The notes: generated by a model not told the origin, from the letters alone. Shown: positions 49,299 through 63,320, counted from the first letter of the stretch. The stretch: 64,000 nt of DNA from an uncultured Gammaproteobacteria bacterium (GCA_964592785.1 CAZQHU010000002.1:12680-76679); one strand, 5' to 3'. Translations and numbers: made by a program.

Positions 49299-49775
49299 CT
49301 AGAAGACCAAGAAACGGAAACGGTACCTGAGATCATCGGTCCCAAGAGGTTCGAGCACCAACCCGTAGGCGGGGATTCCGAATCTCTGCTGGAACCACTG
49401 CAGACCATCATGAGCGGTCTGAATGTTCTCCAGATCACCCAAACCGCCATCGGCAGCAGCGTGGCAACCGACCACCGAACCCCGTCCGATGTGGGTGATC
49501 CCCACGAAGTGTGTAGGCTGGAAGATCCTCACCGCCCGCTCCAACAACTCACGGTTGTTGAATGGCGACCCTTCTGCCAGCCCGAGAATGGTACCGGGAG
49601 TAGCCACGACGTGCTTATCCCAGCCCTTGGAGCCGGCAGCACAGTCGATCCCCATCATCAGTTTCACGGAAAATCGATCATCTGAACACACGGCAAAAAG
49701 CACGCGTGCACCCTCCGGAATCAACAGTTCACTCAACTTGACCACATCAACCATAACTGAAGTAACTTCGGGCAT
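49299..49775 (-). CDS. Hypothetical 158-aa protein in GC-rich island 2
   Basis: About 60% GC in a roughly 33% GC background. SD GAGGTG 5 nt before the ATG (MPEVTSV...). Plus-strand ORFs here look non-proteinaceous. No family recognised; weak flavodoxin-like/CxDxR-like hints only. Confidence 0.45.
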   Translation of the reverse strand: MPEVTSVMVDVVKLSELLIPEGARVLFAVCSDDRFSVKLMMGIDCAAGSKGWDKHVVATPGTILGLAEGSPFNNRELLERAVRIFQPTHFVGITHIGRGSVVGCHAAADGGLGDLENIQTAHDGLQWFQQRFGIPAYGLVLEPLGTDDLRYRFRFLVF

Positions 49776-49855
49776 CTGACACCTCACTTTTCTTTGTTTA
49801 TTACCGGTTTCCGCCGGTACGGTTCCCTTTCCGCCGAGGAAGGGTGTTGCTAGAA

Positions 49856-57753: not shown

Positions 57754-57921
57754 ACACTAGTCTCGCCGTAGCTTGCTGAGTGGCAAGCGAAGGCAGATTG
57801 AAAAGAAAAAGCACTTTTTTAAAGTGCCGCTATTTTACCCTATTTCAAAACCCCCGTCAAGTGTATTTTTTAGTTAGAATGTGGATGAAAAACAACTCAA
57901 TTTTAATATCCACAATAAGAC

Positions 57922-57950
57922 TTGACAATTTTCAAAACTTTTGCTATATT
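57922..57950 (+). promoter_or_regulatory. Near-consensus sigma70 promoter driving GC-rich island 3
   Basis: TTGACA, a 17-nt spacer, then TATATT. Confidence 0.65.
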
Positions 57951-57970
57951 TAGCGGTCCAATCGGGGACC

Positions 57971-57985
57971 CCTCCTTGAAGGAGG
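57971..57985 (+). promoter_or_regulatory. Perfect hairpin CCTCC-TTGA-AGGAGG sequestering the SD of the island 3 ORF
   Basis: cctccttgaaggagg is a 6-bp perfect stem; AGGAGG is the SD, placed 6 nt before the ATG. Confidence 0.6.
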
Positions 57986-57991
57986 AACACC

Positions 57992-58291
57992 ATGCATTTT
58001 TCACTGTCCGTTCACAGCACCTCGTTCCTGATCATGGTCATCAGAAAGAGAGGGCGTAGGATTGCTGCGTTCGCAGGGCCAACTCGAGAAGACATCCTGA
58101 GACTGATGAATGGCATGGGCTACGACCCCCAGGAGATCTCCACCGCGCATGAGGCCACACCGCGACACCTGGAAATGATCGCGAAATACCAGGCGCGATC
58201 GTTCGCCGGCTTCATCATTGCGATGATGAAGAGTGGAAAATGCTCCGAAGAGTCCTACTACATCGGTGAACTCTACAAGCGCGCTGGCTGA
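57992..58291 (+). CDS. Small hypothetical protein (99 aa) in GC-rich island 3; paralog of the 12582-12854 protein
   Basis: Consensus promoter and AGGAGG SD; GC-rich; leader, start and peptide motifs shared with island 1. Confidence 0.55.
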   Translation: MHFSLSVHSTSFLIMVIRKRGRRIAAFAGPTREDILRLMNGMGYDPQEISTAHEATPRHLEMIAKYQARSFAGFIIAMMKSGKCSEESYYIGELYKRAG

Positions 58292-58443
58292 GCGAGTCTC
58301 AATCATCACGAATGCCTCCAGCATGCCCGGCACGCAACCACCCCACCAGTGCCGGCATCGTTCTTTCCCACCACTCCGGCACACCCCAGTTATTATCTCT
58401 AGAAGGTAATAAATGAAAAAAACCGGAGTGAGTGAAGAAAAAT

Positions 58444-58508: not shown

Positions 58509-59459
58509 TTATACTTTTATTTTATTGAAAAGTCGTAAAGCATTTTCCAAAGTAATTTTCTCCACTTCCTCAACAGATAAATGCCTAATCCCCGCAATTT
58601 TCTTCACCACTTCTTCCACCATCCAAGGTTCACATTTTTGCCCGCGATAAGCTTGAGGGGCCAGATATGGCGCATCGGTTTCCACCAAAATTCTATCCAA
58701 AGGACATTTTTCCACAACTTCCAATAAATCCAATGTTGGTTGAGGATCAGTTTTACGTGCAGGAAAAGTGATGACACCAGTGAAACCAATATAGAGTCCC
58801 AAAGTAAGGAATTTTTCTGCTTGTTGCCAATTACCGCCATAGCAGTGGACTACGCCCCAAGGTTCATTCCGAATCCCGCTCAAGCGGAGTGAGGAATCTT
58901 TCGAAGTAAGAACCTGTTGAATTACATTAGAATTGTGTACCCCAAAGTTATCTTCTCCGAAAGATTTCTCGCCTTTTAGTCTCGAAATGAGTGGAAACAT
59001 CTCATCGTAAGCATCGCGAATGTGAATAACAAGAGGTAAATTATGCTTTTGCGCAAAATTATATTGCTTAATAAAAATTTCTCTTTGTTTCTCTAAAACT
59101 TTTTCTTTATCTAACTCTTCCGGAAGATGAAAAAGTTCCAGCCCACACTCCCCTACTGCTATCACTTTTTTTGACTGTGCCAATTCATCATAAAATTTTT
59201 CATCAAAATCTTCTTCGTGCGATAAAAAACTGGATTCTTCCTCGTCTACTTGTTTGGCATGAAGGTGAATTGGATGAAGACCAATTGTCGCATAAATATT
59301 TTCATATTTTTCTGCCATTTCCACAGCTTTTTTACTGGTGTCCATTTGTGTACCAACAGCATTCATAACCACACCTTTCTGACGACAACGCGACAAGACG
59401 GCCTCGCGGTCGTCTTGATATCCTTGAAACTGAATATGACAATGAGTATCAATCATCAT
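58509..59459 (-). CDS. tatD: TatD-family metal-dependent hydrolase
   Basis: MMIDTHCHIQF and later His/Glu/Asp motifs; contains an in-frame repeat-element insertion at 58862-58898. Confidence 0.88.
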   Translation of the reverse strand: MMIDTHCHIQFQGYQDDREAVLSRCRQKGVVMNAVGTQMDTSKKAVEMAEKYENIYATIGLHPIHLHAKQVDEEESSFLSHEEDFDEKFYDELAQSKKVIAVGECGLELFHLPEELDKEKVLEKQREIFIKQYNFAQKHNLPLVIHIRDAYDEMFPLISRLKGEKSFGEDNFGVHNSNVIQQVLTSKDSSLRLSGIRNEPWGVVHCYGGNWQQAEKFLTLGLYIGFTGVITFPARKTDPQPTLDLLEVVEKCPLDRILVETDAPYLAPQAYRGQKCEPWMVEEVVKKIAGIRHLSVEEVEKITLENALRLFNKIKV

Positions 59460-60001
59460 AAATTATCTGCCAGTACATCTTCCATATAGTCAACTGAAGA
59501 TCTCAAAAGTTTCAAAGCTTCTGGTACAAAAGGTAATAATATCGCTGCAATAGATACTGTATAAGGTACGACTACTGAACCAGCCATCCAGCCCATAAAA
59601 CGCTCGGAAAGTGGTATTCTTTCAATAAAATAAAAAACTATCCCCAAACTAATAAGACCTTCCAAAAGTCCAAAAATTAAACCCAAAAAGCGATTGATAC
59701 CTCTAATGAAAGGCAAATAAGTAATAACATTGGTAGTCTTTTCTATTATCCAAAAAACAAAACCAACTAAACGGTTGATCACCACAAAAGCAATAATGAA
59801 CATGAGCACTTTGGAAAAATTGTCTCCCCAACCAGTAACTCCGATAAGCCAATCAGCCATCGGGCCATAGTAGCGAGTAGCCAAATAAACCCCAAATATT
59901 GTTCCCAAAAGAGAACCTAGAGTATGGATAAGTCCAAACCAAAACCCAAACATTCCAAAACCAGCAATGATAATGAGGAGAATGATGTCAAACAGGCCCA
60001 T
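59456..60001 (-). CDS. cvpA: CvpA-family membrane protein
   Basis: MGLFDIILLIIIAGFGMFGFWFGLIHTLGSLLGTIFGVYLA pattern. Confidence 0.8.
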   Translation of the reverse strand: MGLFDIILLIIIAGFGMFGFWFGLIHTLGSLLGTIFGVYLATRYYGPMADWLIGVTGWGDNFSKVLMFIIAFVVINRLVGFVFWIIEKTTNVITYLPFIRGINRFLGLIFGLLEGLISLGIVFYFIERIPLSERFMGWMAGSVVVPYTVSIAAILLPFVPEALKLLRSSVDYMEDVLADNL

Positions 60002-60094
60002 ATAGATTAATTTTAAAATTAAAATTTTTAATTTTTATTGACCCCTGCCGGACGGAAGCTTGGTTTTTTGCTTCCGTCCGGCAGATTCTGATCC

Positions 60095-60286
60095 TCACGA
60101 CATCTTTTCAACACTTTGTCCTCGAGTCAGCCACTGCCAACCCACAACGAAGTAGTAAGCAGTGTGTCTCCAGACAAGACCGGAAATGTACCAATACCGC
60201 TGCCTAACCGTAAGCGGCTTGGTATCCATCTTGACAACACCGACCCCCTTGCCCCACCATAGAGTCTTTTCCGCTGAAGTAGCCAT
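60095..60286 (-). CDS. Small Trp-rich hypothetical ORF (64 aa) in GC-rich island 4
   Basis: AGGGGG SD-like sequence 7 nt before the ATG (MATSAEKTLWWGKG...); GC-rich; a 16-bp perfect hairpin follows. May be a structured RNA rather than a protein. Confidence 0.3.
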   Translation of the reverse strand: MATSAEKTLWWGKGVGVVKMDTKPLTVRQRYWYISGLVWRHTAYYFVVGWQWLTRGQSVEKMS

Positions 60287-60297
60287 TGGCAAACCCC

Positions 60298-61830
60298 CTA
60301 TTTTTCGAGCCGTGGAAAAAGAATTTCCTTTGCGCCTATGAGAGATCCCCCCCTAAGCGCGCCCCATGTTACTACTTTATCACTTGTATTTAATTGATTC
60401 AATATCTTTTCCGCAGTCTCGGGAATAATCGGAAATAAAGCCACAGCAATATGACGCAAACCTTCAGCTAGCTGATATAACAAACCAGAAATGTCTTCAC
60501 CAGCTTTGGCTTTTTTCCAAGGTTCTTGTTCAGAAATGAAACCGTCTAATCCTGCAACAAACTTATTTATTAAATTAACAACTTCTTCAAATTTATATTC
60601 ACCTAAATATTTATTATACTCTGTCCAAAAACTTTCCACTTTCCACTTTCCACTTTCCACTTGAGGAATCTTTGATTCCGAATATTTTTCAACCATTGTT
60701 AAAATCCTACTAGTCAAATTCCCTACTCCATTTACAAGATGTGCGGTATAAAATTCTTCAAAACGAGTAATACTAAAATCACCATCATCATAAGCTGGCA
60801 TGCCTCCAAGCAAAAAATAACGTACTGCATCTGTACCATATTTTTCAACTACTTTATAAGGTTCCACTACATTACCAAGAGATTTACTCATCTTTTGTCC
60901 TTCAGAAGTAATAAATCCATGAATAAACACTTGTTTTGAGTTTGGTAAACCAGCTGACATGAGCATTGCTTGCCACATAGCAGTCTGCTGACGTAAATTG
61001 TCTTTACCAGCTACTTGTACTCCCGGCCAAAACTCTGTATATAAGTCGGGTTTACCCGCCGAAGCTTTAGCGTAGATGGGCTTGTCCGGCGTAGCCTTGG
61101 CGAAGCCGGGCCAACCGAGTGTGGAAATATAGTTTATCAAAGCATCAAACCAGACATACATTACTTGCGTTTCATCTCCTGGTACAGGAATACCCCAAGG
61201 CATTTTTTCAGCCAATCTAGAAATACTAAAATCTTCCAAACCTCGCTCAACAAAGTTTTTAATTTCTAGCTGTCTATTTTGAGGTATAACAAAATTTGAA
61301 TTTTTTTCGTATAATTTTAATAAAGGTTTTTGGTATTTAGAAAATTTAAAAAAATAATTTTCTTCTTCAATTAATTCCAATTCCAAATTGGGGTGAACTG
61401 GACATTTACCATCAACTAGCTCTGAATCCGTTTTTTCCAATTCACAACCTACACAATATTTAACACTATAATTCTTTTTATAAATATCACCATTTTTTTC
61501 ACATAATTTCCAAAATTCCTGAGCAGCTTCTATGTGATGTTTATCAGTGGTGCGAATAAAATTGGTATAACTTAAATTCAAAGCTTGCTTCAAAGAATCA
61601 AATTTAGCAGCATATTCATCACAATATTTTTGTGGGTCAATTCCCAACTCTGTGGCTTTGCGAAAAATCTTTAGGCCGTGTTCATCCGTACCAGTATTAA
61701 AAATTACTTCTTCACCCAATAATTTGTGATAACGAGCGAGAACATCAGCTTGAATAATTTCCAAAGCAAAACCGATGTGAGGTTCAGCGTTTACATATGG
61801 CAAGGTGGTTGTAATATAATAGTTTTTCAT
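60298..61830 (-). CDS. metG: Methionyl-tRNA synthetase
   Basis: TTTLPYVNAEPHIGFALE (HIGH), KMSKS, and a zinc-knuckle CxxC...CPVH. Carries a (ttccac)4 insertion and a 30-nt tandem duplication. Confidence 0.95.
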   Translation of the reverse strand: MKNYYITTTLPYVNAEPHIGFALEIIQADVLARYHKLLGEEVIFNTGTDEHGLKIFRKATELGIDPQKYCDEYAAKFDSLKQALNLSYTNFIRTTDKHHIEAAQEFWKLCEKNGDIYKKNYSVKYCVGCELEKTDSELVDGKCPVHPNLELELIEEENYFFKFSKYQKPLLKLYEKNSNFVIPQNRQLEIKNFVERGLEDFSISRLAEKMPWGIPVPGDETQVMYVWFDALINYISTLGWPGFAKATPDKPIYAKASAGKPDLYTEFWPGVQVAGKDNLRQQTAMWQAMLMSAGLPNSKQVFIHGFITSEGQKMSKSLGNVVEPYKVVEKYGTDAVRYFLLGGMPAYDDGDFSITRFEEFYTAHLVNGVGNLTSRILTMVEKYSESKIPQVESGKWKVESFWTEYNKYLGEYKFEEVVNLINKFVAGLDGFISEQEPWKKAKAGEDISGLLYQLAEGLRHIAVALFPIIPETAEKILNQLNTSDKVVTWGALRGGSLIGAKEILFPRLEK

Positions 61831-61861: not shown

Positions 61862-62224
61862 TTAGGATAGGTTAGATTCTGTAGATCGAATTAAACCATT
61901 AATTAACTTTGCAATTTCAATACTTTGTTCACCTAATTTCCGACTTATTATACCATCAATAAAATTTAAATCTTTAGCTAATAAAATAAAATTTTGGACT
62001 TCTGCCACTGAACCCCTAGCTTGATAATAAAATCTTATTTTATCCTTAAAATGATATCTAGCAAAACCTTCAGCAATATTGGCAGTTATGGAACTAGAAG
62101 CTCTTCGTAACTGACTAATAATTCCATATAATTCTTCTCTTGGCAAATCATTTGTCATCTTATAAATTTCTAATACTAGCAAATGACCCTTCTTCCAAGC
62201 ATCTAGATCATAAAAATTCATCAT
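61862..62224 (-). CDS. Four-helix-bundle protein of the 23S rRNA intervening-sequence (IVS) protein family
   Basis: MMNFYDLDAWKKGHLLVLEIYKMTNDLPREELYGIISQLRRASSSITANIAEGFARYHFKDKIRFYYQARGSVAEVQ is typical of the TIGR02436/S23-IVS family. Confidence 0.8.
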   Translation of the reverse strand: MMNFYDLDAWKKGHLLVLEIYKMTNDLPREELYGIISQLRRASSSITANIAEGFARYHFKDKIRFYYQARGSVAEVQNFILLAKDLNFIDGIISRKLGEQSIEIAKLINGLIRSTESNLS

Positions 62225-63020: not shown

Positions 63021-63048
63021 CTTGATAATAATAAAATATGTGGTAAAA
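63021..63048 (+). promoter_or_regulatory. Putative promoter of GC-rich island 5
   Basis: TTGATA, a 16-nt spacer, then TAAAAT. Confidence 0.45.
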
Positions 63049-63049
63049 T

Positions 63050-63290
63050 AACTTTATCTTGTCAAAGGAGACCTATCTTCGAAGAAAGACAGCACCTACC
63101 GCTACGCAGGGAAAGTGGCTACACGCCGTTCAACTGCCTGGCTATCCTTCTGGATGGCCTCTTCGACCTCGTCGCCCTTCTCCAAGACAAGTGGCGCCAA
63201 GCCGCTTGAACCATTCGCCGGCCAGCTATCCACGCGCCGGCACTTCCAAAAATAAACCCGCCCCACATATTCCGGGGCGGGTATTTTTAT
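63050..63290 (+). ncRNA. GC-rich island 5: candidate small RNA, or degenerated relative of the island 1/3 genes
   Basis: About 240 nt at more than 55% GC between a promoter-like element and a strong terminator. Its only ORF starts at TTG without an SD and encodes a P/R/S-rich low-complexity peptide. Its 5' end (aaaggagac...) resembles the island 1 leader. Confidence 0.3.
63255..63289. terminator. Bidirectional intrinsic terminator (island 5 and the ferredoxin/nifU operon)
   Basis: acccgccccacatattccggggcgggt flanked by A-runs and T-runs. Confidence 0.75.
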
Positions 63291-63320
63291 CCTCTTCTTT
63301 TTAAAAGTAAAAGAGGAAAA

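Follow-up and report, generated by a model that had tools for sequence, protein, structure and literature searches.

The window analysed here is a 64-kb stretch of DNA with a GC content of 35.4%, which comes from a CPR, Magasanikbacteria-like genome. In the GTDB genome set, the proteins most similar to its MetG (up to 68%) come from Magasanikbacteria and other Patescibacteria (CPR). The metG and cvpA genes lie on the minus strand within the gene order nifU-fdx-rsmI-metG-cvpA-tatD, which is conserved among relatives, and are separated in the window by a spacer of 296 nt. Across CPR, the gap between these two genes is mostly 20-35 nt (the range is usually 11-35 nt), or is AT-rich where it is longer. 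Most of the spacer in the window is occupied by a GC-rich segment, called island 4 in an initial annotation and hereafter. The features of the junction are the following.

60298-61830, minus strand: metG
60300-60298, minus strand: metG stop codon TAG, followed directly by GGGG, which creates the sequence AGGGGG
60040-60297, minus strand: GC-rich inserted segment (island 4), from the metG stop to the AT-rich cvpA leader, delimited by its composition and missing from the nearest relatives
60294-60299, minus strand: Shine-Dalgarno (SD)-like AGGGGG, overlapping the metG stop TAG (60300-60298) and ending 7 nt before the ATG of the open reading frame (ORF)
60095-60286, minus strand: orphan ORF of 63 codons plus stop (MATSAEKTLWWGKG...SVEKMS), with its ATG at 60286 and its stop at 60097-60095
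60045-60084, minus strand: perfect 15-bp GC-rich stem with a 10-nt A-rich loop (AAAAAACCAA in minus-strand RNA), beginning 10 nt past the ORF stop
60002-60039, minus strand: AT-rich palindromic spacer directly upstream of the cvpA ATG, recognized by its sequence and by inverted repeats I2-I8
59456-60001, minus strand: cvpA

Read along the minus strand, the AGGGGG at the metG stop codon is thus followed by the 63-codon ORF, 10 nt, the 15-bp stem-loop and a 40-nt AT-rich cvpA leader. The claim that a GC-rich island lies between metG and cvpA was borne out, as the stretch from 60037 to 60373 has a GC content of about 0.52 compared with 0.354 for the window. This stretch spans the whole metG/cvpA spacer minus its AT-rich last 40 nt, and also includes the last ~75 nt of metG. 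The minus strand of island 4 consists of 34% G and 26% T. The AT-rich sequence at 60002-60039 resembles the AT-rich metG-cvpA spacers of relatives, and on this resemblance it is probably the ancestral metG-cvpA junction. A short direct repeat that can be read from the sequence, AGGGG(G)T...CAAT, is present at both borders of island 4 (60299-60285 and 60044-60035), and such a repeat is compatible with microhomology-mediated insertion.

No sigma-70-like promoter was found on either strand of the island 4 region, a terminator scan of 59800-60500 returned 0 sites, and cvpA-tatD have no recognizable promoter of their own here. No tRNA or tmRNA was found.

The neighbouring genes carry peculiarities of their own. 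The last ~20 codons of metG are GC-enriched and diverged (WGALRGGSLIGAK vs WGKLKDGDIICKG), and at ~61021-61110 the gene has a 17-aa in-frame insertion (GFAKATPDKPIYAKASA; GC 0.58, GC3 0.63) that is missing from the MetG proteins of five relatives. TatD likewise has an insertion of ~30 aa (KSFGEDNFGVHNSNVIQQVLTSKDSSLRLSGIRNE).

Distribution of the segment and of comparable islands

Island 4 was found only in Logan contigs of the same species, which derive from three runs (SRR10276719, SRR10276721 and SRR32129872). One of these contigs (L093) breaks inside the hairpin loop. The copies are nearly identical, with 1 SNP in 296 nt. This sole strain difference inside island 4 is a C to T change at 60188 (minus strand). 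It is a synonymous change at the third base of an ORF codon (TAC to TAT), it lies in a loop that is unpaired in the predicted fold, and as a single SNP it is uninformative about selection.

The closest relatives found, in JGI metagenomes, share 76-77% identity in MetG and 76% in CvpA with the window genome, and they do not carry island 4. Their metG-cvpA gaps, and those of the next closest relatives, showed no similarity to island 4 by blastn:

L082: gap of 11 nt
L083: gap of 132 nt, AT-rich
L084/85 (next closest): gap of about 180 nt, AT-rich and palindromic

No second copy of island 4 exists in the 64 kb or in 93 fetched loci besides the same locus of the same species. Searches of JGI metagenomes and IMG/VR, and of GenBank phages by DNA comparison and tblastn, likewise revealed no relative, and plasmids yielded only one 23-nt chance hit. 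Island 4 was found only in the one species and is absent from the nearest relatives, and therefore we regard it as a recent lineage-specific insertion that is fixed in the sampled strains. Conservation of the ORF in related genomes had been proposed as a test of the gene, and the ORF fails this test because the nearest relatives are without the whole island.

Two relatives have other elements at this junction. In L084, the metG-cvpA spacer (L084:1853-2032) contains the inverted repeat ccctgttaaat...atttaacaggg between direct repeats (cacctaatt / cctaattcacctaat), and looks like a miniature insertion with target duplication. In Magasanikbacteria RIFOXYD12_FULL_33_17, the closest GTDB relative, the junction holds a GC-rich element of ~165 nt (L002:4546-4712), which has a closing stem of ~33 bp, contains a multi-branch junction (-99.7 kcal/mol, z = -10.2) and is followed by a canonical terminator. 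This element matches no Rfam family, resembles neither island 4 nor any other fetched locus, and looks like an undescribed structured RNA.

Compared with L082 and L083, the window genome contains additional DNA at nearly all operon junctions. Island 5 separates fdx from rsmI, a 120-aa gene lies at the rsmI-metG junction, island 4 at the metG-cvpA junction, and island 2 follows tatD. The 120-aa gene (61862-62224, minus strand) is AT-rich. L082/L083 lack it and have only 8 nt between rsmI and metG; in L009, a homologue is located between metG and cvpA. The GC-rich islands that were compared with island 4 are as follows.

49299-49775: island 1, a 158-aa orphan gene followed by a CCCCGCGCCGGA/TCCGGCGCGGGG hairpin
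57871-58347: island 2, a 99-aa orphan gene with promoter TTGACA-N17-TATATT and SD sequence AAGGAGG
L081:2277-2927, also in L088: alternative island 2 cassette encoding a 144-aa stand-alone MshEN / PilB N-terminal domain, with promoter TTGACA-N17-TACTTT
63022-63292, plus strand: island 5, a self-contained transcription unit antisense to the operon, with promoter TTGATA-N16-TAAAAT and an extended -10 TG
49776-49790, 57975-57991 and 63062-63070: gene-start sites of islands that were compared with 48 native starts

The islands have GC contents of about 0.52-0.60 in genomes of 0.33-0.41. Only 2 of the 48 native gene starts bear a Shine-Dalgarno motif, and native leaders are AT-rich; SD motifs (GAGG, AAGGAGG, AAGGAG, GGGG) are present in the GC-rich islands 1, 2 and 5 and in the L081 cassette. 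This pattern suggests, from sequence signals, that the islands derive from SD-using donors. Among the promoter matches with an extended -10 TG in the last 20 kb, the two best belong to islands 2 and 5, and both lie on the strand opposite to that of the operon.

Island 2 is polymorphic. Its 477-nt segment of promoter plus gene is swapped for a different GC-rich segment of 651 nt in L081/L088, and a GC-rich 3' flank of ~80 nt (58348-58429, with a GTGCCGG/CCGGCAC hairpin) is common to both alleles. The island 1 gene has a relative at L091:1020-1459 (72% identity in protein, 77% in DNA), which forms a GC-rich patch in an otherwise AT-rich JGI contig and adjoins an rve/HTH_23 transposase gene. Island 5 comprises about 240 nt of GC-rich sequence that folds with z = -5.5 and has a bidirectional terminator at 63256-63282. 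Its only protein-like frame (IFEERQHLPLRRESGYTPFNCLAILLDGLFDLVALLQDKWRQAA) has no canonical start codon, and the island may be an sRNA. L082/L083 lack island 5 and have an fdx-rsmI gap of 56 nt.

Comparable insertions are present in other relatives, where mutually unrelated, GC-rich (0.56-0.60) orphan ORFs of 110-189 aa occur at cvpA-tatD or post-tatD junctions (L039:1817-2305, L084:2677-3174, L005:5049-5401, L004:6076-6502 and L037:6035-6716). In L083, an insertion of 3.8 kb separates cvpA from tatD. These two junctions seem to be general insertion hot-spots in the clade. Islands 1 and 2 and the L081 cassette had no match among phages or viral contigs, and a literature search on GC-rich intergenic islands in Patescibacteria found nothing relevant.

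No significant pair emerged when islands 1, 2, 4 and 5 and 11 islands from relatives were compared with each other by blastn and tblastx. The loose resemblance between the starts of islands 4 and 5 that had been noticed earlier was not recovered in this comparison and is not above chance. We also considered a 'MATS' start, ATGGC(T/A)ACTTCA, common to island 4 and the L081 cassette, and this candidate was rejected because its score of 25 is not significant relative to shuffled sequences (19.9 ± 2.2, maximum 29). The hairpin was similarly discarded as a recombination site common to all cassettes, since the other islands are without comparable hairpins. The assignment of island 4 to the same class as the other islands holds for composition and history, in that all are lineage-specific GC-rich insertions at junctions, but not for sequence or anatomy, because the promoters of islands 2 and 5 and the codon periodicity of islands 1 and 2 have no counterpart in island 4. 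Island 4 is atypical of the class in being the smallest, in having no promoter of its own and in having by far the strongest hairpin. Judged by their sequences, the islands together indicate that foreign, SD-using gene cassettes of higher GC content move into hot-spots at the junctions.

The open reading frame

The initial annotation described a 64-aa ORF with 8 Trp residues behind an SD-like AGGGGG. Both the ORF and its peptide sequence were confirmed, as was the AGGGGG motif (60299-60294, 7 nt before the ATG), but the product has 63 aa and 6 Trp residues. A TTG at 60292, upstream of the ATG, would give a product of 65 aa. The predicted protein is basic (net charge +6), contains 4 Tyr residues in addition to the Trp residues, and has a maximum Kyte-Doolittle 19-residue hydropathy of 0.47, which is not transmembrane-like. 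Tandem UGG UGG codons occur at positions 10-11, and the 6 in-frame TGG triplets compare with 2.5 expected (P = 0.027). The Trp richness is largely expected from the strand, because a G+T-rich sequence favours both Trp codons and open frames. The SD-like motif says little about expression of the ORF, since the host seems not to rely on such motifs.

Searches for relatives of the ORF product returned no homologue. It has no match in Pfam, PHROGs, NCBIfam or PADLOC, and a word-indexed search of 5.8 billion clustered proteins matched only an identical Logan protein, which is the ORF itself. An exhaustive phmmer search against 1.84 billion representatives retrieved, besides the ORF itself, only two proteins that are translations of tandem DNA repeats and that we regard as artefacts. 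The five other reading frames of island 4, concatenated, also yielded nothing in a protein search. A conserved family of Trp-rich peptides, for which a search had been suggested, was thus not encountered in protein family collections or among billions of proteins. AlphaFold2 produced a single-sequence model with a beta-hairpin and a long helix at a mean pLDDT of 77. We give this value little weight because it is only a little above that of a non-coding control, a W/R-rich antisense ORF (mean pLDDT 66). A Foldseek search of the model against the PDB found nothing (best E-value 3.6). An apparent internal duplication, a 14-nt in-frame repeat at 126-nt spacing, was dismissed as not significant (P = 0.09).

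The length of the ORF is of borderline significance and gives it modest support. An ATG-initiated ORF of at least 63 codons arises on the minus strand in 0.36% of dinucleotide shuffles (P = 0.0036). Its codon positions (purine at position 1, 0.59; A3, 0.14; GC3, 0.56 versus 0.48 for both GC1 and GC2) mildly resemble the pattern of the clear genes in other islands. The description of island 4 as a small aromatic-rich peptide gene may be right but is unproven. The ORF takes up the island, its start is plausible and its length exceeds chance expectation, but it has no homologue anywhere. We consider the chances that it is translated and functional to be roughly even.

The main rival to a gene cassette is that island 4 was acquired but has no function. 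A piece of a GC-rich cassette, or what is left of one after decay, could have entered by illegitimate recombination and be awaiting deletion, with the ORF a by-product of G+T-rich composition and the hairpin a relic. Several observations suit this explanation in addition to the lack of homologues in every frame, the lack of a promoter in the island and its rank as the smallest of the islands. Codon-position GC is flat over the whole of island 4, whereas islands 1 and 2 show strong periodicity. When any start codon and either strand are allowed, an ORF of the same length is found in 3.7% of dinucleotide shuffles (P = 0.037), and a second frame on the same strand, which continues metG, is open for 56 codons. 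The AGGGG(G)T...CAAT repeat at both borders is also what microhomology-mediated insertion could leave behind. However, CPR genomes are compact, with relatives having only 11-35 nt at this junction, and useless DNA should be short-lived in them. Moreover, island 4 is fixed in contigs from all three runs, whereas island 2 is polymorphic, and the ATG-initiated ORF, improbable as it is on its strand, fits exactly between the metG stop codon and the hairpin. We judge inert DNA to be rather unlikely, while still the most serious competitor of the reading developed below.

The hairpin and RNA structure

The inverted repeat CTGCCGGACGGAAGC-N10-GCTTCCGTCCGGCAG occupies 60045-60059 and 60070-60084. It had been reported as a perfect hairpin of 16 bp; the hairpin is real, but its perfect portion comprises 15 Watson-Crick pairs, and a 16th pair forms only as U·G when the minus strand is read as RNA. 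In 1000 dinucleotide shuffles of the spacer, the perfect stems reached at most 10 bp, compared with the 15 observed, and no other GC-rich hairpin in the 64 kb is as strong. A U-tract is absent on both strands (minus-strand tail GGGGUCAAUAAAAA, plus-strand tail AUUCUGAUCC). Of the two features of a canonical (L-shaped) intrinsic terminator, the site thus has the GC-rich stem-loop but not the U-tract immediately 3' of it.

For the whole 299-nt spacer, the folding z-score is -5.5 on the minus strand and -4.8 on the plus strand. When the hairpin is removed, the remaining body of 214 nt folds no better than shuffled sequences (z = -0.99 and -0.66, respectively), and the value of -5.5 is attributable to the hairpin, which alone supplies all the excess stability. 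A search of the whole 64-kb window with Rfam 15 gave 0 hits at gathering score. A sensitive Rfam scan of 59950-60350 gave only sub-threshold matches to the generic hairpin, of which the best, rli61, scored 31 bits where the threshold is 50.

These data bear on the possibility that island 4 is a non-coding RNA element, either an sRNA derived from the metG 3'-UTR, with the hairpin as its 3' end, or an intercistronic element acting in cis, which would use the hairpin to set the expression ratio of metG to cvpA-tatD. The position of a very strong hairpin at the 3' end of the island in the operon direction accords with such a function, as does the folding of the full spacer. An RNA-like, highly structured element (z = -10) with its own terminator also resides at the same junction in L002, but it is unrelated to island 4 and has no similarity to it. 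Against an RNA function stand the ordinary stability of the body and the lack of an Rfam family and of a promoter. The only copies are near-identical and from one species, and their single SNP lies at an unpaired position. The earlier suggestion of a structured RNA, for which an Rfam match had been the proposed check, fares poorly on the same grounds: island 4 is not supported as a known or detectably structured RNA, and we consider an RNA element improbable. For annotation pipelines, this case is a warning against taking every GC-rich island in an AT-rich genome for a structured RNA.

Possible origin and function, and comparison with known systems

The reading we prefer, tentatively and with slightly less than even confidence, is that island 4 is a small foreign gene cassette that is read through from metG and ends in a hairpin without a U-tract. 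Under this reading, about 255 bp of foreign-type DNA would have been inserted recently, and in this species only, into the normally tight metG-cvpA junction of a CPR operon. Island 4 would then be the smallest of several GC-rich accessory cassettes gathered at the junctions of the same operon by this lineage and its relatives. A foreign origin is proposed from composition, signals and absence from relatives, since no donor was identified.

Because island 4 has no promoter of its own, it would be co-transcribed with metG by read-through. The ORF may then be translated to yield a small, basic, aromatic-rich accessory protein. By analogy with known elements, the hairpin could act as a weak, I-shaped terminator or as a 3'-end or intercistronic mRNA stabilizer, which would protect the upstream mRNA and terminate transcription partially. 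We picture a partial rather than a full stop because there is no U-tract. Partial termination would leave cvpA-tatD expressed, and read-through into these genes is argued by their lack of a recognizable promoter and by their arrangement in relatives, where they are packed directly behind metG.

A broader proposal is that island 4 and its sister islands belong to an undescribed cassette traffic in Magasanikbacteria-like CPR bacteria. Single GC-rich, SD-bearing foreign genes or RNAs would be inserted and exchanged at a few hot-spots in one conserved core operon (fdx|rsmI, rsmI|metG, metG|cvpA, cvpA|tatD and tatD|atp). These episymbionts might take up the DNA from a host of higher GC content, or from other members of the community, by means of their competence and pilus machinery. 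The unusually perfect hairpin of island 4 might then be a recombination or processing signal and not a terminator. We regard this extended scheme as improbable too.

Island 4 could also be a miniature element, either transposable or palindromic (of the MITE, REP/PATE or Rickettsia palindromic element kind). This would account for a perfect palindrome within an insertion; relatives such as L084 have small palindromic insertions at the same junction, and metG itself contains GC-rich in-frame insertions. Nevertheless, island 4 is present once in 64 kb and, among the 93 fetched loci, only at the same locus of the same species; terminal inverted repeats were not found, and there was no match in viral contigs, phages or plasmids. 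This origin is very unlikely. Least probable of all is a regulatory peptide gene, because a Trp-codon-rich leader that controls read-through of the hairpin into cvpA, as tandem Trp codons followed by hairpins might suggest, would be far longer at 63 codons than known leaders, would lack a U-tract and any evident alternative antiterminator and would precede genes (cvpA and tatD) unrelated to tryptophan, whereas a type I toxin with an antisense RNA, which is typically a small, orphan, lineage-specific intergenic ORF like this one, would be expected to be hydrophobic, which this peptide is not (maximum hydropathy 0.47, charge +6), and to have an antisense promoter, and no promoter-like site was found on either strand.

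Island 4 alone is an orphan insertion and matters little. The more useful pattern is that a compact, AT-rich and apparently SD-independent CPR genome tolerates and exchanges small, foreign, GC-rich and SD-bearing cassettes at specific operon junctions. If expressed, such cassettes are candidates for strain-level accessory functions of unculturable organisms, for example in host interaction or phage defence, as exemplified by the stand-alone PilB N-domain cassette of the sister strain. They would also provide a handle on how CPR bacteria acquire DNA.

Several known genetic systems share individual features with island 4. Attenuators of the trp type also carry tandem Trp codons early in a short ORF upstream of a hairpin; however, island 4 has a 63-codon ORF, no U-tract terminator, no antiterminator alternative and downstream genes that are not Trp-related. 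Integron gene cassettes, which consist of a promoterless ORF and an attC site, resemble island 4 in the sequence of a small promoterless ORF and an inverted repeat, and in having neighbouring cassettes that are exchangeable between strains. In contrast to integron arrays, the islands are scattered singly at different junctions, and some of the others have their own promoters. Furthermore, the island 4 hairpin is perfect and does not have the bulges, extrahelical bases or R/L boxes that define attC, and no integron integrase was noticed in the window, which was not systematically searched for intI.

The intercistronic REP/BIME hairpins that stabilize mRNAs in enterobacterial operons are similar in that a strong stem-loop, not a canonical terminator, lies between co-directional genes of an operon. 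REP elements are imperfect and occur many times per genome, whereas the island 4 hairpin is perfect and unique in the 64 kb. Intrinsic terminators without a U-tract (I-shaped) are associated with high-GC bacteria and have been described for mycobacteria. Island 4 shares with them a long, perfect, GC-rich stem just past a stop codon and the absence of a U-run, but the terminator-like sites of the host have A- and T-tracts, and island 4 is by analogy only a candidate site of termination.

The closest counterparts are lineage-specific islets of ORFan genes. Acquired DNA is usually AT-richer than its host, whereas island 4 is GC-richer, which is expected with a recipient of 35% GC. Island 4 departs from such islets also in that the insertions bear SD motifs while the host's own genes lack them, and in that no donor or vector (integrase, tRNA site or phage) was identified for it. 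Nonetheless, it has their atypical composition, their absence from close relatives and a single short homologue-less ORF between conserved core genes, and the neighbouring islet (island 2) is polymorphic between strains. Island 4 is therefore best filed as an orphan member of this familiar category of lineage-specific acquired islets.
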